DNA of 64,000 nt from Candidatus Saccharimonadota bacterium (GTDB lineage Bacteria > Patescibacteriota > Saccharimonadia > Saccharimonadales > SZUA-47), in assembly GCA_016700315.1 (NCBI GenBank), contig CP065013.1:705449-769448 (forward strand), in the 5' to 3' direction. The notes under the pieces were generated by a model. The model was not told the origin of the DNA, searched no databases, and worked only from the letters and a program-made list of their open reading frames with translations. A program made the translations under genes and the position numbers. Position 1 is the first letter of the stretch, and every line of letters starts with the position of its first letter. Shown here piece by piece: positions 5,240 to 39,125 of this stretch.

Positions 5240-6388
5240 TTGCACCGCCTGTGTTTGTTTCTGGTGCTAGGAGTAATTATCCGTAATCCAATTACCAAGC
5301 AAATTAAGCGCAAGCTAAAGTTTACTGGTTTTAAATCGAATCGTCAGAAAAAGCGTTTCATACGTTTTTCTATAGTCACTGGAAATATCGGCCTACTACT
5401 ATTAGTGGCTTTCTTTGTGTTTGGTGGCAGCAATGCCGACACCCCTCTAGCTACTCAGGCGTCTGTAAAAGCTACAGATATAGATGTTACTAACCCGTTA
5501 GATCAGCTTTCCAGTGCAGATATTGCTGTTCATGCTGCCCAAATGGTTCAGTTAGAAGAAACTAGGGCAGTAGTTAATAACGCCGATAGCGTTAATGCGC
5601 AGCTAGCAATCGTGCCTACTGATAGTCAGGTTGTAGCAAAGCCTCAGATTGTTAGTACTGGTTTGAAATCTAAAAAAGACATAAAGACCTATACTACAAT
5701 AGCTGGCGACAGTGTTACTGCGTTGGCTCAGAAGTATGGCGTTACTAGTGATAGCATCAAATGGTCAAACGATCTAAGTGCTGACTCGATTCCTGCGGGC
5801 CGAACTTTGCGCATTCCACCGGTCAACGGGATTGTTTATCAGGTTAAACCAAATGATACTCCAGATACCCTAGCTTCGAAGTTCAAGGCCTCAAAAGATC
5901 AAATTGTAGCTTTCAATGACGCTGAAATAACTGGTCTAGTAAGAGATGAATTCATCGTTATTCCCGATGGAACAGTCACGGTAGTGCAAGTTCGCGCTAC
6001 TCCTTCGTATAATCGCAGTAATGGTTTTGCGTTTGGTGGTAGTTCGCCTATCTGGGGCGGTGCAAACGGCTATGATTACGGTTATTGTACTTGGTATGCG
6101 GCTTCTAAGCGTGCAGCAATTGGCAGACCCGTACCTAGCAATCTTGGCAATGCCAGCACGTGGTTATCGCTAGCGCGAGCGGCTGGGTTAGCTACCGGTT
6201 CAACACCACAGGCAGGAGCGGTAATATGGACTCCACCACGCGATTATTATGGGCACGTTGGTTTTGTGGATAGTGTTGATCCTGATGGTACAACTCACGT
6301 TTCAGAGATGAACGTTGCAGGGTGGAATAGGGTTTCTACGAAAACTCTGACTGCCGCTCAAGCTGCCAACTACGGCTATATCTATTAG
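5240..6388 (+). CDS. secreted/anchored peptidoglycan hydrolase with LysM repeats and a C-terminal CHAP domain
   Basis: 382-aa ORF with an uncertain non-ATG start. TM segment, two LysM-like repeats (YTTIAGDSVTALAQKYGV..., YQVKPNDTPDTLASKF...) and a CHAP signature (GYCTWYAA...GHVGFV...SEMN). Confidence 0.8.
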   Translation: MHRLCLFLVLGVIIRNPITKQIKRKLKFTGFKSNRQKKRFIRFSIVTGNIGLLLLVAFFVFGGSNADTPLATQASVKATDIDVTNPLDQLSSADIAVHAAQMVQLEETRAVVNNADSVNAQLAIVPTDSQVVAKPQIVSTGLKSKKDIKTYTTIAGDSVTALAQKYGVTSDSIKWSNDLSADSIPAGRTLRIPPVNGIVYQVKPNDTPDTLASKFKASKDQIVAFNDAEITGLVRDEFIVIPDGTVTVVQVRATPSYNRSNGFAFGGSSPIWGGANGYDYGYCTWYAASKRAAIGRPVPSNLGNASTWLSLARAAGLATGSTPQAGAVIWTPPRDYYGHVGFVDSVDPDGTTHVSEMNVAGWNRVSTKTLTAAQAANYGYIY

Positions 6389-27420: not shown

Positions 27421-29211
27421 ATGACAAACGACTTTGAGCAAGAAACCAGAAAGCGGCTGAGGCGTAAGTTCAGGCTGAAACGTAAACAGTTAAATCGGGT
27501 TGGTCAAGATGCAGGTGCTGGTGTTGATAAGTATGTTTTTGACAAAATCCAAAAAGTCGCTAGCGTAAAGCGCTTTCTCATTAGCTGGCTAGGTCTTTTG
27601 ACCGTCTTGGTTGTCGGCGTAATTTATCAAACAAGTGGCCTAGGACGCTATTACCTACGACAGGGACCAATAGAAGGCGGAACCTATCGCGAGGGCATAG
27701 TAGGAACATTTACAAACGGCAATCCTATCTTTGCGACTGGCACAGTCGACAGCGCTGTAAGTGGTTTAATTTTCAACGGACTACTGACCTATGATTCTTC
27801 CAACAATCTGGTTCCATCCTTGGCACAAGAATGGTCCGTCGACTCTAGTGGAAAAGTCTATACAGTTAAGTTGCGTGACGATGTCAGATGGCATGACGGC
27901 GCAAGTTTTAGTTCCGATGATGTAGTTTACACTTTTCAAACAATCCAAAACCCCGATACTCGTTCGCCTTTACAGCGCAGCTGGCAAGATGTAAAAATTA
28001 GCGCACCCGATAGGTTAACTGTGGAATTTAGTCTTAGCTCTTCACTCGCAGGCTTCGAATATTCATTGACCACGGCAATAGTACCAAAGCACATTCTGTG
28101 GGGGGTGAAGCCTGAGCAGCTAAGGAGCGATGTTTTCAATACGGCACGTTTGGTTGGGACGGGTCCGTTCAAACTTCAGTCGGTAGAGGTTTCGGGTGCA
28201 ACGCCAGAAGATCGCCAAGAAGTGATCAGTATGGACCGTAACGACGAATATTTTAGAGGTAAACCCGGCATAGAACGTTTTGTTGTATTGTCGTTTAGGG
28301 ACTCGGCAGAGTTGACTAAGGCTTTCAAGCAAAAAAGTATAAATGCCGCCGTCGGTATGAGTGAGACTGATGTCGAGGGTGAAGAGAATGTATCAATCTA
28401 TAATATTCCTTTAACCAGTGCGGTGATGACTTTTTTGAATAATTCTTCGCCGATACTTAGCGACGCCAAGGTGCGTCGTGCTCTTAATCAAGCCACCGAC
28501 AAAGATGCGATTTTAAAGGCGATTGGTTACCCTCTAATCAAGGTAGATCAACCGTTTCTGAAAGGCCAACTAGGCTATTCGTCAGAATATGCACAGGCTG
28601 TCTATGACAAAAATGGCGCCGAAAAGCTACTTGACGAGGCTGGCTGGCTAAAAACAGCCTCGGGTATCAGGGAGAAAGACGGCAAAAGTTTGTCCTTACG
28701 CTTATTCTCACAAAGTTTGACCGAATACGCAGTTGTCACCCAAGCCCTGCAAAAGCAGTGGTACGACGTCGGAGTTGCCTTAGATGTTATTTTGCAGCCG
28801 GAACAAGAGCTACAGAGCGGAGCAATCGCACGGCACGATTACGATGTGTTGGTGTATGGAATTACGATAGGCTCGGATTCAGACATTTTTCCGTACTGGC
28901 ACAGTAGTCAGGCCGATCCGCGGTCACAAACACGACTCAATCTCTCGGAATTTAAAAACTCCATAGCTGATAAAGCTCTTGAAGCCGGGCGGACTAGAAT
29001 TGACCCAGCTATTAGAGCGATAAAGTACAAGCCTTTTTCAGAAGCCTGGAACGAGCAAGTCCCGGCAATCGGGCTCTACCAACCACGTTTTTATTACGTT
29101 GTTCATGGTGGTTTAAGTGGTTTTGACCCCAAGCGGATAAACGCTGCGGCCGATCGCTTCCGCAATGTGCGCCTTTGGCGCATCCGTACCGGCCAAAGTG
29201 AGCTAGATTAA
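27421..29211 (+). CDS. ABC transporter substrate-binding protein, family 5 (oligopeptide/dipeptide/nickel type)
   Basis: 596 aa. N-terminal anchor, then family-5 SBP blocks (LLTYD..NNLVPSLA..W..S.DGK.YT..LR..V.WHDG..F...DV..T). Confidence 0.85.
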   Translation: MTNDFEQETRKRLRRKFRLKRKQLNRVGQDAGAGVDKYVFDKIQKVASVKRFLISWLGLLTVLVVGVIYQTSGLGRYYLRQGPIEGGTYREGIVGTFTNGNPIFATGTVDSAVSGLIFNGLLTYDSSNNLVPSLAQEWSVDSSGKVYTVKLRDDVRWHDGASFSSDDVVYTFQTIQNPDTRSPLQRSWQDVKISAPDRLTVEFSLSSSLAGFEYSLTTAIVPKHILWGVKPEQLRSDVFNTARLVGTGPFKLQSVEVSGATPEDRQEVISMDRNDEYFRGKPGIERFVVLSFRDSAELTKAFKQKSINAAVGMSETDVEGEENVSIYNIPLTSAVMTFLNNSSPILSDAKVRRALNQATDKDAILKAIGYPLIKVDQPFLKGQLGYSSEYAQAVYDKNGAEKLLDEAGWLKTASGIREKDGKSLSLRLFSQSLTEYAVVTQALQKQWYDVGVALDVILQPEQELQSGAIARHDYDVLVYGITIGSDSDIFPYWHSSQADPRSQTRLNLSEFKNSIADKALEAGRTRIDPAIRAIKYKPFSEAWNEQVPAIGLYQPRFYYVVHGGLSGFDPKRINAAADRFRNVRLWRIRTGQSELD

Positions 29212-29226
29212 TTTAGACTCAATAAG

Positions 29227-29628
29227 TTGGAGTGGTGGTACTCCTGCTGGCGGAGGTAGACAAAGCGTAGTTTCAGGTGAGAAGCGCCAGGGGCGCTTCG
29301 GAAACCCGCAGTCCAGATTGGCGACTTGTTGACAGTCTGACGAGGGCGGGTCGGGACTCGGCTGAATCCGCCATTAGGCGGATCACCGAGATCGTGACCT
29401 AGTGGGGGCAACCCTGTGGAGGTGAGCCGTGCCAGTGGCACGGCGCAAGGCCGGAAACTGATTTACTGCTTGCAGTAAGTAAGTTGAGGCGGGTGAAAAA
29501 GCTCAATGAACTTTTGCAAGGAAATCTTCTCTTGAAAACTTGTTTTCATAGACGAAGTTTCGGGGCCGCTGTAAGTGGCCGCCGAAAAGGTGGCCAAGTC
29601 CTGACTTGAACCTTATAATATCTAATAT
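29227..29628 (+). ncRNA. candidate structured RNA / decayed tRNA-Leu paralog immediately upstream of tRNA-Leu(CAG)
   Basis: Three collinear blocks are identical to the downstream tRNA (29230-29238, 29255-29262 plus 29268-29278, and 29399-29422). There are at least six perfect 6-8 bp hairpins (for example 29281-29299, 29426-29444, 29577-29595). The only ORF call is a minus-strand one. Confidence 0.4.
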
Positions 29629-29714
29629 GCGCGAGTGGTGGAACGGTAGACACGCTAGTTTCAGGTACTAGTGGGGGCAACCCTGTGGAGGTTCAAGTCC
29701 TCTCTCGCGCACCA
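29629..29714 (+). tRNA. tRNA-Leu (anticodon CAG), CCA encoded
   Basis: Manual cloverleaf: acceptor GCGCGAG/CTCGCGC, anticodon arm CTAGT-TTCAGGT-ACTAG, long variable arm, T arm GGAGG-TTCAAGT-CCTCT, 3' ACCA. Confidence 0.93.
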
Positions 29715-29731
29715 TTTAAACGGAGAAGGTA

Positions 29732-30469
29732 ATGATTTTACAAGGTAAAACGGTTTTGATTACTGGTGCAACAAGTGGGATGGGTAAGGCAATAGCCTTG
29801 GCTATGGCAAATGAAGGCGCAAACGTAGTTATCAACTACACGTCCAATGATACTGCTGCCGAAAAGCTCTCTATTAGCTTAAAGACTAAGTCTAACTGCT
29901 TAACCGTAAAAGCAGACATTTCTAGTGGGAGCGAAGTAACAAAAATGTTTGAAAAAATAAAAAAAGAATTTGGCAAAATCGACATACTTATAAATAACGC
30001 TGGTATTTTTGATTCTCAAGATGGCCCGTTTAATCTAGAAGCTTTTAGGAATACCTTTGAGACGAACTTTTTTGCACAGATTGATGTTACCAGAAAAGCC
30101 AAGGAGATGATGGAGAGTGGGAAGATCATTTTTATCTCTTCAATTCATGCTAAATTGGGCAACGGTAGACCGAGCGCAATTGCCTATTCTGCTTCAAAAG
30201 CGGCGACTGAATCTTACATGAAAAACTTGGCAAAAGAACTTGCTCCTACAATCTTAGTAAACGCGGTAGCTCCTGGCAGAACCCTAACACCAATGTGGGG
30301 CAAACTGTCAGATGCTGAAAAAAATAGTTTAGCGGAAGGTCACCTTACCAAAAAATGGATTACACCTGAGCAAATAGCCGACGCAGTAGTCTTCTTAGCA
30401 AAAAATGACGCAGTCTGCGGTGAAGTGCTTGTTGTGGACGGTGGTATGAGTTTAAAAACTTTAGGTTAA
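29732..30469 (+). CDS. short-chain dehydrogenase/reductase (FabG-like)
   Basis: 245 aa. TGATSGMGKA cofactor motif, NNAG, catalytic S...YSASK. Confidence 0.9.
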   Translation: MILQGKTVLITGATSGMGKAIALAMANEGANVVINYTSNDTAAEKLSISLKTKSNCLTVKADISSGSEVTKMFEKIKKEFGKIDILINNAGIFDSQDGPFNLEAFRNTFETNFFAQIDVTRKAKEMMESGKIIFISSIHAKLGNGRPSAIAYSASKAATESYMKNLAKELAPTILVNAVAPGRTLTPMWGKLSDAEKNSLAEGHLTKKWITPEQIADAVVFLAKNDAVCGEVLVVDGGMSLKTLG

Positions 30470-33722: not shown

Positions 33723-33839
33723 GTCCCCAAACAATTCCAATTGTTTGGGGTAGCTGAGGAACAAGACAAGACCCCGTCTATTTATTTGCCACTTGCTAGC
33801 ATAAAAATAGACGGGGTTGAACTTAGTTCGGACGTGGTG
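33723..33839 (+). repeat. 117-bp repeat, copy X (two hairpins)
   Basis: CCCCAAACAAT-TCCA-ATTGTTTGGGG and ACCCCGTCTATTT...AAATAGACGGGGT. About 92% identical (9 mismatches by eye) to 37078-37194, in the same orientation. Confidence 0.85.
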
Positions 33840-34828: not shown

Positions 34829-35837
34829 TGAAGTAGGACACTAAACCTAACGAAGGTTTGGTGTCAGTGAAGAGATCAAAAGATAATGATCAGATGGGAA
34901 AGCACTATGATCATTTAAGCTATGAAGATCGAGTCAAGATTGAACATTGGCACAAAAGCGGAAAGAGTATCCGGTTCATAGCACGTGAGCTGGGGCGAAG
35001 CCCCAATACCATCAGCTATGAACTAAATAACCTTCGGGTGTCTGGTGAATACGTTGCCAAGAAAGCTAAGGTGAAAGCATACCAAAAACGTAGGCTGGCT
35101 CGAACTTGGAGTAACAAAGTTGCCAGAGACAAAGACCTGCGAACCTATGTTGACGATAAACTGGATCTCGGCTGGTCACCCAAAGTCATAGCCGGTCGCA
35201 CTCAAGCCGATCTCAACATTGCTGTGTCGAAGGATGCGGTCTACCGCTATGTACGTCTGTACGCCCTTCACCACAAGCTGCACTTCAAAGGTAAGCCAAA
35301 GAGACGGAAGACAATGTATCGTCGCTCACTGATTGGTGACCGGAAATGGATCGAAGAACGTATCCTACGTGATGAGATCGGTCACTACGAGCTCGACTTC
35401 ATTGTCAGCAGGCACAGTAGAGCTGTGTTGTTGGTTGCTGTAGATACGCTGAGCAAAAAGACACTCATCGAGCTTCTACCCAACAGAACGAAGAAAGAGG
35501 TGTCAAAGGCTCTGAGAGTGATGTTTGACGGTTGCACCGTTAAAACCATCCTGACCGACAATGACATTGCTTTCAAGCAGTGGCAGGAGTTTGAGAGACT
35601 ATTGCATGCCCCAATCTACTTCTGTCACCCATACCACTCGTGGGAGAAAGGTCTAGTTGAGAACGCCAACAAGTGGATACGGCACTTCATACCGAAGAAA
35701 ACAGACCTACAATTCGTTACTAAAGAAAAAATACACGAGTGCCTCGTGTATTTAAATGATCGTCCAAGAGAAGTGCTTCAGTTCAGAACTGCCAATGAAG
35801 TATACTGGGAGAAATTAACTTGAAGTGTCCTACTTCA
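34829..35837 (+). mobile_element. IS30-family insertion sequence (about 1.0 kb)
   Basis: 14-bp terminal inverted repeats TGAAGTAGGACACT (34829-34842) and AGTGTCCTACTTCA (35824-35837) enclose a single IS30-type transposase ORF. Confidence 0.8.
34858..35823 (+). CDS. IS30 family transposase
   Basis: 321 aa. N-terminal HTH (LSYEDRVKIEHWHKSGKSIRFIARELGRSPNTISYEL) and a DDE core (...DFIVS..., LTDNDIAF, HSWEKGLVENANKWIR). The start codon is uncertain. Confidence 0.9.
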   Translation: MVSVKRSKDNDQMGKHYDHLSYEDRVKIEHWHKSGKSIRFIARELGRSPNTISYELNNLRVSGEYVAKKAKVKAYQKRRLARTWSNKVARDKDLRTYVDDKLDLGWSPKVIAGRTQADLNIAVSKDAVYRYVRLYALHHKLHFKGKPKRRKTMYRRSLIGDRKWIEERILRDEIGHYELDFIVSRHSRAVLLVAVDTLSKKTLIELLPNRTKKEVSKALRVMFDGCTVKTILTDNDIAFKQWQEFERLLHAPIYFCHPYHSWEKGLVENANKWIRHFIPKKTDLQFVTKEKIHECLVYLNDRPREVLQFRTANEVYWEKLT

Positions 35838-37077: not shown

Positions 37078-37194
37078 GTCCCCAAACAATTCCCATTGTT
37101 TGGGGTAGCTGAGGAACAAGACAAGACCCCGTTTATTTATATGCCACTTGCTAGCATAAAAATACACGAGGCTGGTCTTATTTCGGACGTGGTG
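37078..37194 (+). repeat. 117-bp repeat, copy Y
   Basis: It starts 2 nt after the stop of the 385-aa gene. The first hairpin is intact and the second is degraded relative to copy X. Confidence 0.85.
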
Positions 37195-37197
37195 GAT

Positions 37198-37368
37198 TTT
37201 TACAACTCCGCTAGAACCTATTTTGAGGAAAAATGCTGAAAAGTACGGCCCCGCCGCCTAGCACAGCAGAGCTGTGCTGCGCCCCGCCCAGAAAGCCCTT
37301 TGCATATTTTTTGAATTTCCCCCGCAGAGATTTTTTAGAAAAGGAAAAGGGTGTTTCTGGTTGGGTCG
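37198..37368. repeat. 171-bp inverted repeat, left arm
   Basis: Exact reverse complement of 38742-38912 by manual comparison. The two ORF-track peptides spanning the arms share an identical 51-aa C-terminal stretch (TQPETPFSFSKK...FPQNRF). Confidence 0.9.
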
Positions 37369-37471
37369 CGTTTCGGCATAGGCCGAAACAGACGGCGTGT
37401 CTGGGGCGGCACTGCCGCCCTCGTGTCGCTTGCGACACGCAAACAGGGGAAAATCTGTTAAAATTAAAAGT

Positions 37472-38095
37472 ATGAGCAAAGATAAATTTGATTTTAGTGA
37501 GGAGTTTCGCACTTCAAGAGTGCAAACAATAGCCAGAGGTGAATTATTTTGGACTGAAGTAGATATCTTAGACCTAAGCGATACTCAGACGGCTAATGTT
37601 CTAAAAGCTACTCTGGAGAATTACGGCATAAAAACCAACTACTTTCCTGCGGCACTTGCCGAACATCTTAAGAAAGTTCTGGGGGGCAGCGATTATGCTA
37701 AAGCTCCGTACCTTATTATTGCCGCGCACGGTGCCGAACAAGAAGGCTCGCTACATATGGACACTTTGGCTGATGAACTTGCAGCTACACAGGACTTTCA
37801 CGGCCAAATGACACCAGAAGACCTTTCAAAATTTGTAGATGTAAAAGATAAGGTCGTGATAAATGTTGCGTGTGTTGGCGGCGAAAAAGAATTAGCGAAA
37901 GTATTTATAGAAAAAGGTGGCGCAAAAGCCTATATTGCCGAGACATCTTCACCCTTTCATTATGTAAGTTCATTATTCCCGACATTGCTTTTCTATTTTC
38001 TGACTAACTACACAAACTTAAGTTTGGCAGAGGCTTTTGAACGCGCAAAGGCCGCCGATGCCGAAGAATTTAAAAGCTGGAAGCTCTTTGAGTAG
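37472..38095 (+). CDS. small CHAT/caspase-fold-like protein (putative Cys-His peptidase)
   Basis: I prefer the ATG at 37472, with an extended -10 TGtTAAAAT at 37456-37464 lying 7 nt upstream. 207 aa with LIIAAHG (His86) ... VINVACVGG (Cys134) ... KGGAKAYIAE ... LSLAEAFERAK, the order seen in CHAT/clan CD domains. This is motif-level inference only. Confidence 0.55.
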   Translation: MSKDKFDFSEEFRTSRVQTIARGELFWTEVDILDLSDTQTANVLKATLENYGIKTNYFPAALAEHLKKVLGGSDYAKAPYLIIAAHGAEQEGSLHMDTLADELAATQDFHGQMTPEDLSKFVDVKDKVVINVACVGGEKELAKVFIEKGGAKAYIAETSSPFHYVSSLFPTLLFYFLTNYTNLSLAEAFERAKAADAEEFKSWKLFE

Positions 38096-38142: not shown

Positions 38143-38712
38143 ATGAGCCTGAAGATCCTAATCATTGAGGGCATAGCAACTAGTGGTAAATCAACCATGA
38201 TTGAGTTGTTGCAGAAAAAGTTAAGCGACAAAAAGATTAAGGTATATGGTGAACCAGATACACATATACCTATAATGGAACAGCCAGCAGAGTTGCATCT
38301 GGATTTTTTCAAATCACTGCTTGATACCTCGTTAAATACCGAAGCTGATTACATAATCTTTGACCGACTTTATCTGACCCAAGCGTTTAGAGCAAAAGCT
38401 GACATTTCAAAGTATGAAGATATAGAAAATGTGCTACTACAACATCAAACACTTACTGTATTTTTGAAAGTGGACGAAAAGACTACCGCGAAAAGAGTGC
38501 AAACTGCCGCTGAACACCGCGAACAATCGTGGGTCGAGTACATAAAAACAAAAGGCAAAACCATTGAGGAGATAGCGCGGTATTATGTTGACCAACAGCG
38601 TAGCCAAATTGAACTACTCGCCACATCAAAAGTTAATAATAGAGTTTTTGATACCACCGAACACGAATACGATAAGATTGCTGACGAAATCCTGTCTATC
38701 TTTAAACTTTAA
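38143..38712 (+). CDS. P-loop kinase, thymidylate/deoxynucleotide kinase-like
   Basis: 189 aa. ILIIEGIATSGKST Walker A, ...VYGEPDT..., YIIFDRLYLTQAF (DR strand), lid-like basic segment. Confidence 0.6.
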   Translation: MSLKILIIEGIATSGKSTMIELLQKKLSDKKIKVYGEPDTHIPIMEQPAELHLDFFKSLLDTSLNTEADYIIFDRLYLTQAFRAKADISKYEDIENVLLQHQTLTVFLKVDEKTTAKRVQTAAEHREQSWVEYIKTKGKTIEEIARYYVDQQRSQIELLATSKVNNRVFDTTEHEYDKIADEILSIFKL

Positions 38713-38741
38713 GGATTGCCGCACCTGCGCTTTAACGCAGA

Positions 38742-38912
38742 CGACCCAACCAGAAACACCCTTTTCCTTTTCTAAAAAATCTCTGCGGGGGAAATTCAAA
38801 AAATATGCAAAGGGCTTTCTGGGCGGGGCGCAGCACAGCTCTGCTGTGCTAGGCGGCGGGGCCGTACTTTTCAGCATTTTTCCTCAAAATAGGTTCTAGC
38901 GGAGTTGTAAAA
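38742..38912. repeat. 171-bp inverted repeat, right arm
   Basis: Reverse complement of 37198-37368. Confidence 0.9.
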
Positions 38913-39038
38913 CTTCACCAAAAATGGACTAAAGTCAGAATTGTCGCCCGAAAGAACGGCTTTTTCTTTGGTTTTTGCTGCGCAAAACCAAAGAAAAAAC
39001 GGCGCAGCGCGCCGCTAATTCCAATTTTTGTCCATTTC

Positions 39039-39125
39039 TGGTGCGCGAGAGAGGACTTGAACCTCCAAGCTTTTTAAGGCACAGCCACCTCAAGGCTGCG
39101 TGTTTGCCAGTTTCACCACTCGCGC
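39039..39125 (-). tRNA. tRNA-Leu (anticodon GAG), CCA encoded
   Basis: The reverse complement reads GCGCGAGTGGTGAAACTGGCAAACACGCAGCCTTGAGGTGGCTGTGCCTTAAAAAGCTTGGAGGTTCAAGTCCTCTCTCGCGCACCA. Anticodon loop TTGAGGT, long variable arm. Confidence 0.9.

Follow-up and report, generated by a model that had tools for sequence, protein, structure and literature searches.

A probable decayed tRNA-Leu(CAG) copy interrupted by twin structured inserts in a Saccharibacteria genome

What is the hairpin-dense stretch of about 400 nt that carries pieces of a leucine tRNA directly upstream of an intact copy of the same tRNA in the genome of a Candidatus Saccharimonadota bacterium? The window that we analyzed is the whole 64,000-nt stretch of contig CP065013.1 in GenBank assembly GCA_016700315.1 (positions 705,449 to 769,448 of the forward strand). 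The region in question, below also called the element, occupies 29212-29628, between a gene for a substrate-binding protein (SBP) and the tRNA-Leu(CAG) gene. A first-pass annotation had offered three options for it, namely a decayed tandem tRNA-Leu carrying structured insertions, a new structured non-coding RNA (ncRNA), or a leader that mimics a tRNA. From sequence comparison we consider it rather probable that the region is a decayed resident tRNA-Leu(CAG) pseudogene interrupted by two copies of an unclassified structured insert, at a recombination hot spot. The parts to which we refer are the following.

29226-29278, + strand: 5' part of the pseudogene, comprising the 5' strand of the acceptor, the D arm, and the 5' strand and loop of the anticodon arm, with exact matches to the tRNA.
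29239-29254, + strand: extra 16-nt segment at the D-loop position, delimited from its sequence, its minimum free energy (MFE) hairpin and its alignment to the tRNAs of relatives L091 and L042.
29279-29398, + strand: insert I2, 120 nt, replacing A39 in AGGT-A-CTAGT and made up of module M1 and the hairpin CTCGG..ATCCGCC-ATTA-GGCGGAT..CCGAG.
29276-29352, + strand: module M1 with its GGT lead-in, folding at -35.1 kcal/mol with identical MFE and centroid structures (z = -3.3).
29399-29423, + strand: 25-nt block with the 3' strand of the anticodon stem, the variable arm, the 5' strand of the T stem and T54, identical in all strains seen.
29424-29594, + strand: insert I3, 171 nt, replacing T55 in AGGT-T-CAAGT and made up of module M2, an AT-rich middle and the terminal hairpin GGCCGCC-GAAAA-GGTGGCC.
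29421-29497, + strand: module M2 with its GGT lead-in, aligned to M1.
29595-29613, + strand: T-arm remnant, CAAGTCCT direct and GACTTGAACCT inverted, recognized by the shared-block match; its CTTGAAC could pair with the 5' end of the pseudogene.
29591-29619, + strand: promoter-like site TGGCCA-17-TATAAT, a consensus match only, at 10/12 positions.
29629-29714, + strand: functional tRNA-Leu(CAG), found by ARAGORN and by Rfam RF00005 at 52.3 bits.

The element and the downstream tRNA have five blocks in common, which lie in the same order in both. Three exact matches of 9, 8 and 11 nt occupy 29230-38, 29255-62 and 29268-78, and a fourth (29399-29423) corresponds to tRNA positions 40-64. The first-pass annotation had placed these blocks at the right coordinates, except that it had counted 24 nt in the fourth, which has 25. 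The fifth collinear block, CAAGTCCT at 29595-29602, covers parts of the T loop and T stem. It is followed at 29603-29613 by an inverted copy of the T arm, the 11-nt reverse complement GACTTGAACCT, and the two together make the perfect palindrome CAAGTC-CT-GACTTG. The five-block chain (29226-29613) amounts to 61 nt, or 36 nt when the 25-mer is left out, against a mean of 3.4 and a maximum of 27 nt in 1000 shuffles (exact matches of at least 8 nt), and the earlier claim of collinear tRNA-Leu(CAG) blocks is thereby borne out. Taken alone, the 8-mer of the fifth block is near chance, with 0.49 matches of at least 8 nt expected per shuffle, and the chance of the 11-mer reverse-complement match is estimated at about 0.01.

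The upstream copy was not called as a tRNA. ARAGORN found only the gene at 29629-29714, and RF00005 had no match in 29212-29628 at E <= 10. With the inserts removed, the stems read from the sequence retain 6/7 pairs in the acceptor, 2/3 in the D stem, 3/5 in the anticodon stem and 3/5 in the T stem, and A14 is missing; on this reading the upstream copy is unable to form a cloverleaf even without its insertions. The acceptor pairing, which is possible between GTTGGAG (29226-32) and CTTGAAC (29605-11), and the T-loop fragment both qualify the earlier statement that neither a T arm nor a 3' acceptor strand is left, which was only partly right. At the D-loop position, TACTCC of the 16-nt segment pairs back onto GGAGTG (29229-34) in the MFE fold. 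The 3' part of this segment, CTGGCGGA, resembles the D arm TGGCGGAA of the relatives' tRNA-Leu(CAG) when aligned to L091 and L042.

The position of the pseudo-copy, which begins 14 nt past the SBP stop codon, is also informative. In L091 and L042, whose SBP are 60% and 38% identical to that of the window, the order is SBP, 50-100 nt, an intact tRNA-Leu(CAG) and the FAD oxidase gene. Inspection of these intergenic regions found neither the element nor the short-chain dehydrogenase (SDR) gene that follows the tRNA in the window, which speaks against a conserved RNA at this site. About 35 Nanosynbacter-type loci have tRNA-Leu(GAG) within roughly 40-60 nt after SBP, and L007 (47%) has SBP, FAD oxidase, tRNA-Leu(GAG) and tRNA-Val. 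Because relatives keep a tRNA-Leu right after SBP, the adjacency of the two genes is ancient, and the comparison places the pseudo-copy in the resident tRNA-Leu position. The 78% relative L087 has an inverted tRNA-Leu(CAG) about 340 nt after SBP, and its contig ends inside the tRNA. Three contigs of an 84% relative (L088-L090) all stop 52 nt after SBP, in a motif found at 37079-37130 of the window.

The first-pass annotation missed that I2 and I3 are paralogous and that both are placed in the same repeated 10-nt motif of the tRNA. Judged from their sequences and predicted folds, the two large inserts are copies of one two-hairpin module. Over the first 77 nt, M1 and M2 are identical at 41 positions in a nearly gapless alignment (z = 5.8), a score that none of 2000 dinucleotide shuffles reached, and z is still 5.2 with the common GGTGAG excluded. 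A covariance model built from I2 (29276-29402) matched the start of I3 at 29421-29542 with 31 bits and a rough E of ~3e-6, and matched nothing else. The 3' ends are also alike (CCGAGATCGTGACCTAG vs CCGAAAAGGTGGCCAAG, 12/17, P ~0.007). The whole-length alignment of I2 and I3 is not significant (z = 1.1-1.5), and the homology emerges only from separate tests of the 5' 77 nt and of the 3' ends. The motif AGGT-N-CWAGT occurs twice in the tRNA, as AGGT-A-CTAGT at positions 35-44 and as AGGT-T-CAAGT at positions 61-70. Each insert lies within one of these occurrences, where the middle base is replaced by GAG...GTGRC.

Each module folds alone to the same shape, with the MFE structure equal to the centroid. 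This shape combines a GGUGAG tail with two hairpins, one of 8 bp with an AGK triloop and one in which a short closing helix encloses an 11-bp stem with a CUUG cap; the core GYGCC-AGK-GGCRC is common to the two module hairpins. Between M1 and M2, six of the 19 pairs are changed on both sides yet still paired, three in each hairpin. Pairing holds in 93.7% of the cells of the alignment; with the 3' partners shifted by 1-3 columns, the figure drops to 37-57%. A U.G pair common to both modules favors the + strand. The energy of folding alone cannot identify the strand, because the - strand gives z = -6.7 and the + strand z = -4.8 (-172 kcal/mol) over the element. All six hairpins listed by the first-pass annotation are present.

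Searches against known families and collections gave nothing that would assign the element. When all 4227 models of Rfam 15 were run at the gathering threshold over the whole window and at E <= 10 over 29100-29760 and 29212-29628, only the real tRNA was found; the region therefore matches no Rfam family, the tRNA model included. Models of group I and II introns, RNase P, tmRNA, T-box, ROOL, GOLLD, raiA, HEARO and OLE had no match in the region at E <= 10. The element was found only in contigs of one Saccharibacteria species, in all the strains seen. Neither blastn nor nhmmer found it in 216 fetched loci (1.6 Mb), and blastn in distant mode found no match to it in phages and plasmids. Exact-pattern scans of IMG/VR for the tRNA block, the I3 hairpin and the I2 hairpin returned no match each. 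A purine/pyrimidine-coded pattern of the I2 hairpin had no match in metagenome contigs, a collection evidently without even this species. A metagenome scan anchored on the tRNA block returned at least 120 ordinary tRNA-Leu genes, and its two double matches were normal Leu(CAG)-Leu(GAG)-Leu(CAG) arrays. A third copy of the module was sought with model R2, made from both modules; there was none in the 64-kb window with filters off, nor in 772 kb of related loci. The module-consensus pattern had five chance matches in IMG/VR, with arms that do not pair.

Four candidate motifs within the element were also considered and rejected. The string CUGACGAG is not a hammerhead core, since neither helix II nor GAAA follows. 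The apparent complementarity of GCCGGAAACUG in I3 to the anticodon arm, at 10/11 pairs, could arise by chance with a probability of about 0.15. The hairpin at 29426-44 was rejected as a group II domain V, and TGGCAC at 29436-41 was rejected as a sigma-54 site, as no -12 element follows it.

Does the element behave as a maintained sequence among strains? We compared the window with two diverged strains, L218 (GCA_029781765.1) and L223. L218 has four substitutions in the element. L223 has twelve over 334 comparable nt, the rest of its element being a scaffold gap, and six of the twelve are transitions within 18 nt (29256-29273) that turn GGTAGACAAAGCGTAGTTTCAGGT into GATAGACAGGGCACAGTTCCAGGT. 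This patch destroys blocks 2 and 3, with the equivalents of G18 changed to A and of U33 to C, so the tRNA-like features appear not to be under constraint. The 58 hairpin pairs carry five stem substitutions between strains, one from GC to GU and four that destroy the pair. The only covariation lies between the two internal paralogs; the strain comparison offers no compensatory change and four disruptive ones. The divergence of L223 from the window is given below for the element and for three neighboring genes.

Element: 3.6% at all compared sites, 1.6% outside the mutated patch.
SBP: 0.6% at all sites, 1.6% at third codon positions.
SDR: 2.0% at all sites, 2.8% at third codon positions.
FAD oxidase: 3.3% at all sites, 8.8% at third codon positions.

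The divergence between strains is weak evidence for neutral drift rather than for a maintained RNA. Together with the real blocks, the ancestral position and the lack of a cloverleaf, the variable tRNA-like positions among the strains support the first option, a decayed tandem tRNA-Leu with structured insertions.

Independent short-read assemblies of this species break at the same points, with two contigs ending at 29428, one at 29422 and three at 29493. L223 has a single-nucleotide polymorphism (SNP) at 29429, and a gap of 100 N (L223 1246-1345) covers 29494-29576. The AT-rich middle of I3 may vary at the level of strains.

Transcription of the region has to be considered next. The TGGCCA-17-TATAAT match ends 9 nt before position +1 of tRNA-Leu(CAG), and the tRNA-Leu(CAG) of relatives is likewise preceded by TATAAT, 10-25 nt upstream. 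It is plausible that the functional tRNA is driven by its own promoter, downstream of the element. Because the element lies upstream of this likely promoter, it is likelier to be transcribed as the 3' tail of the SBP mRNA than as a leader of the tRNA. Co-transcription of the region with the tRNA, which the first-pass annotation had thought probable, is doubtful because the promoter match lies downstream of most of the element. The option of a tRNA-mimicking leader loses ground for the same reason and because G18 and U33 are not conserved. Open reading frames (ORFs) within the region are short and implausible.

We suggest the following course of events. The ancestral tRNA-Leu(CAG) after SBP would have become a tandem pair in this species, of which the downstream copy (29629-29714) stayed intact with its own promoter-like site and the upstream copy died. 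The latter would have been split by the paralogous 120-nt and 171-nt inserts and by the extra D-arm segment, and then decayed. One insert may have been copied into the second motif by means of the short homology of the flanks; alternatively, a small family of insertion elements may have contributed two members that landed independently. The tRNA blocks were most likely kept identical to the live gene by short-patch gene conversion bounded by the inserts; alternatively, two family members that had already diverged could have inserted into a recent duplicate. Transcription of the element is probably passive, with the element forming the 3' tail of the SBP operon, where its GC-rich hairpins would at most stop or stabilize the SBP transcript ahead of the tRNA promoter. 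It would act neither as a tRNA or tRNA mimic nor as a conserved ncRNA.

Several points weigh against this reading. The perfect identity of the tRNA blocks beside the old-looking divergence of the modules can be reconciled only by assuming gene conversion or independent insertions in addition. The former is not a clean fit for the patch in L223, because the inter-block bases of the window agree with neither the tRNA nor L223. At 47% divergence the modules have nonetheless kept both hairpins, which implies past selection on the fold, as RNA or as single-stranded DNA; a pure junk model is insufficient because six compensatory changes preserve both module hairpins. In addition, the test for constraint is weak, with three strain sequences at 1-4% divergence. 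The contigs of the closest relatives (84% and 78% SBP identity) end at the locus, and the search for modules covered the 64-kb window and related loci.

The surroundings support frequent recombination at this locus. In L218 a large serine recombinase gene (Recombinase and Zn_ribbon_recom domains; L218 3795-4791) lies directly after the CCA end of tRNA-Leu(CAG) and replaces SDR. Over its first ~50 nt this island is 79% identical to 38977-39028 of the window, which lies beside tRNA-Leu(GAG). The genes tRNA-Leu(CAG) and tRNA-Leu(GAG), which are oppositely oriented in the window, have an identical 29-nt 3' end, with the T arm and acceptor strand (29686-29714 and 39039-39067), and also agree over 12 nt at the 5' end; in L007 and L091 the second tRNA-Leu stands in direct orientation after the FAD oxidase gene. 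The sequence comparison suggests that the L218 island uses the 3' end common to both tRNA-Leu genes. The island, the inverted tRNA of L087 and the common 29-nt end support a tRNA-Leu recombination hot spot.

Further repeats and a transposase lie in the same part of the window. Inverted repeats of ~170 nt at 37190-37370 and 38740-38910, each with a hairpin AGCACAGC-NNN-GCTGTGCT, flank two ORFs, one without a Pfam match (37397-38095) and one thymidylate-kinase-like (38143-38712). This two-ORF cassette adjoins tRNA-Leu(GAG) (39039-39125, - strand). A hairpin motif CCCCAAACAATTCCNATTGTTTGGGG recurs at 33725-33750 and 37080-37130 of the window and at 2094-2145 of L088. The copy at 37080 is followed by TAGCTGAGGAACAAGACAAGACC, and the same tail follows SBP in the 84% relative, where three independent contigs end. 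An IS30-family transposase (HTH_38 and rve) is encoded at 34858-35823, 5 kb downstream, within the block that separates FAD oxidase from tRNA-Leu(GAG).

Could the element instead be a young, lineage-specific functional RNA? Such an RNA, either a cis-acting 3' untranslated region or leader or a small stable RNA, might control the stability of the SBP mRNA, insulate the tRNA promoter or bind a tRNA-Leu partner. We regard this as unlikely, although it would account for the common fold held by M1 and M2 through six compensatory changes and for their U.G pair, which is standard only on the + strand. It would also agree with folds more stable than shuffled sequence (z = -3.3 to -5.5), with the fixation of the element in all strains seen, and with its high GC content (56-59%, against 44.9% in the whole window). 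However, there is no homolog in the collections searched or at the relatives' syntenic site, four of the five stem substitutions between strains break pairs, and the tRNA-like loops are altered. Neither a promoter nor a terminator match delimits an RNA, and most stems are perfect palindromes, which are equally consistent with an origin at the DNA level. The lack of an Rfam match at E <= 10, of homologs and of the element at the relatives' site, together with the broken stems, also goes against the wider proposal of a new structured ncRNA class. ROOL, GOLLD, raiA, HEARO and OLE resemble the element in being structured, ~400 nt long and found beside a tRNA. The element differs from them in having no Rfam match or homologs, in its restriction to one species and in a structure that is not conserved across strains.

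A scar of site-specific integration has a still smaller chance of being correct. Here the 25-bp repeat (29399-29423 and 29668-29692) would be the core of an attachment site, and the incoming element would have brought a replacement 5' part with a promoter, perhaps also SDR, before being mostly deleted, with the hairpins as remnants of its arms. The exact direct repeat fits this, as does the serine-recombinase island of L218 at the same tRNA; the end of this island matches sequence beside tRNA-Leu(GAG) at 79% identity. The absence of SDR at the locus in relatives and the low GC content of this gene (33-36%) point the same way, and the CAAGTC-CT-GACTTG palindrome has what we take to be the layout of a serine-recombinase crossover site. 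On the other hand, when integrative elements enter a tRNA gene it is normally the 3' end that they replace, with 3' fragments left behind downstream, whereas here the fragments come from the 5' part and are found upstream. Only tRNA positions 40-64 are covered by the repeat, which ends within the T arm, no gene lies in the 244 bp between its two copies, and the element showed no similarity to the ends of the island. I2, its paralogy to I3 and their common placement in AGGT-N-CWAGT would be left unexplained.

It is quite improbable that the perfect palindromes are protein-binding sites at the DNA level, for example operators upstream of the promoter of the tRNA and SDR. The core that recurs in both module hairpins, the overlap of the last hairpin with the -35 hexamer, and a - strand that folds as well as the + strand relative to shuffles could be read in this way. 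Yet the arms outside the core covary, which fits a hairpin better than a sequence-specific operator, there is no regulator gene nearby, and the palindromes are absent in relatives having the same tRNA.

Finally, the inserts might be introns, and the upstream copy a multi-intron tRNA-Leu that is spliced to a working tRNA. The upstream copy is interrupted three times, at the D loop, beside the anticodon loop and at the T loop, which brings archaeal multi-intron tRNAs to mind, and the multi-intron tRNA genes of Thermoproteales, with their transposed introns, are alike also in that two intervening sequences are related to each other; here, by contrast, the genome is bacterial, no bulge-helix-bulge was seen and the exons are non-functional. 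Group I introns are frequent in the tRNA genes of Patescibacteria, where they were detected with the RF00028 model at E < 1e-4 (PMC13011429). They resemble our inserts in coming from the same phylum, in being structured, in interrupting a tRNA gene beside the anticodon loop and in following a U, and with one boundary choice both inserts follow U and end in G. Nevertheless, the intron reading is close to refuted and almost certainly wrong: RF00028 had no match in the region, the inserts are too short (118-171 nt) and lie at 38/39 and 54/55 rather than in the anticodon loop between 33/34 and 36/37, no pairing of a 5' exon with an internal guide and no GCCU-type guide was read in the first 30 nt of either insert, the first intron bases at 29268-29285 and 29390-29405 cannot on inspection pair with the first bases of the 3' exon to give a central helix of 4 bp, the joined exons make no tRNA (A14 is missing and the D, anticodon and T stems are mispaired), and L223 mutates U33 and G18.

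The genes around the element add some context. On the + strand the order is UvrC, aminopeptidase P, a holin-family protein, SecG, SBP (SBP_bac_5, 27421-29211), the region, tRNA-Leu(CAG), SDR and FAD oxidase. The flanking SBP and SDR proteins are identical to QQS64670.1 and QQS64671.1 (NCBI), and the best matches of the SBP protein are Saccharibacteria metagenome-assembled genomes. The tRNA has a D-loop SNP at 29644, with C in the window (GGAACGG) and T in L217, L218 and L223 (GGAATGG). The SDR gene starts 17 nt past the CCA end of the tRNA. As no promoter match was found in this gap, SDR is probably co-transcribed with the tRNA. The gene (29715-30469) has a GGAGAAGG ribosome-binding site. It is not at this locus in any relative checked, and its closest homologs (67%) are in unrelated contexts. 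In the Nanosynbacter-type loci L008-L045 (~5858-6250), tRNA-Leu(GAG) is separated from tRNA-Ala(GGC)/tRNA-Val(CAC) by a gap of 320-400 nt in two length classes, with neither annotation nor Rfam match.

Among known systems, tRNA pseudogenes and tandem remnants at hot spots come closest to a decayed and interrupted tRNA-Leu. A partial dead copy beside a live gene, a rearranged locus and an island in a sister strain are all found here, and other bacteria have tandem arrays of the type Leu(CAG)-Leu(GAG)-Leu(CAG). In contrast to such remnants, the blocks here are 100% identical but parted by large structured inserts, and 5' and middle parts lie upstream instead of 3' attachment remnants downstream. 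The inserts themselves are reminiscent of small mobile repeats that resemble miniature inverted-repeat transposable elements (Correia, ERIC, RUP, BOX, REP/BIME and those derived from IS200/IS605), as they are 120-171 nt long, hairpin-rich, intergenic after the SBP gene and present in two related copies. They differ in that only two adjacent copies are present and no dispersed family was found in the window and the 772 kb of related loci. Their termini are not inverted (GAGAAGCGCC...CGTGAC and GAGCCGTGCC...GGTGGC), and there is no clear target duplication, only the partial direct repeat GGTG/CGTG at the ends. IS200/IS605 elements insert 3' of a fixed tetranucleotide without target duplication. 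Both inserts stand just 3' of AGGT with hairpins near both ends, while IS608-type hairpins lie further from the ends. No TnpA or TnpB gene was seen among the ORFs checked.

The main consequence of this analysis is a clean-up, in that a hairpin-dense, tRNA-like stretch should be catalogued neither as a new ncRNA class nor as a tRNA-mimicking leader. What is unusual is limited to the twin inserts and their common target motif. There is a low probability that they represent an undescribed class of small structured insertion elements in bacteria of the Candidate Phyla Radiation (CPR). Such elements, DNA or intron-like, would be 120-170 nt long with a 77-nt two-hairpin start, would recognize AGGT-N-CWAGT in the anticodon arm and T arm of tRNA-Leu, and would have persisted here solely through having landed in a redundant tRNA copy. 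If further copies occur in the full genome or in close relatives, the inserts would be a new small element that targets tRNA sequences in the reduced genomes of CPR bacteria, and would illustrate how insertions of this kind are taken up by tandem tRNA copies.

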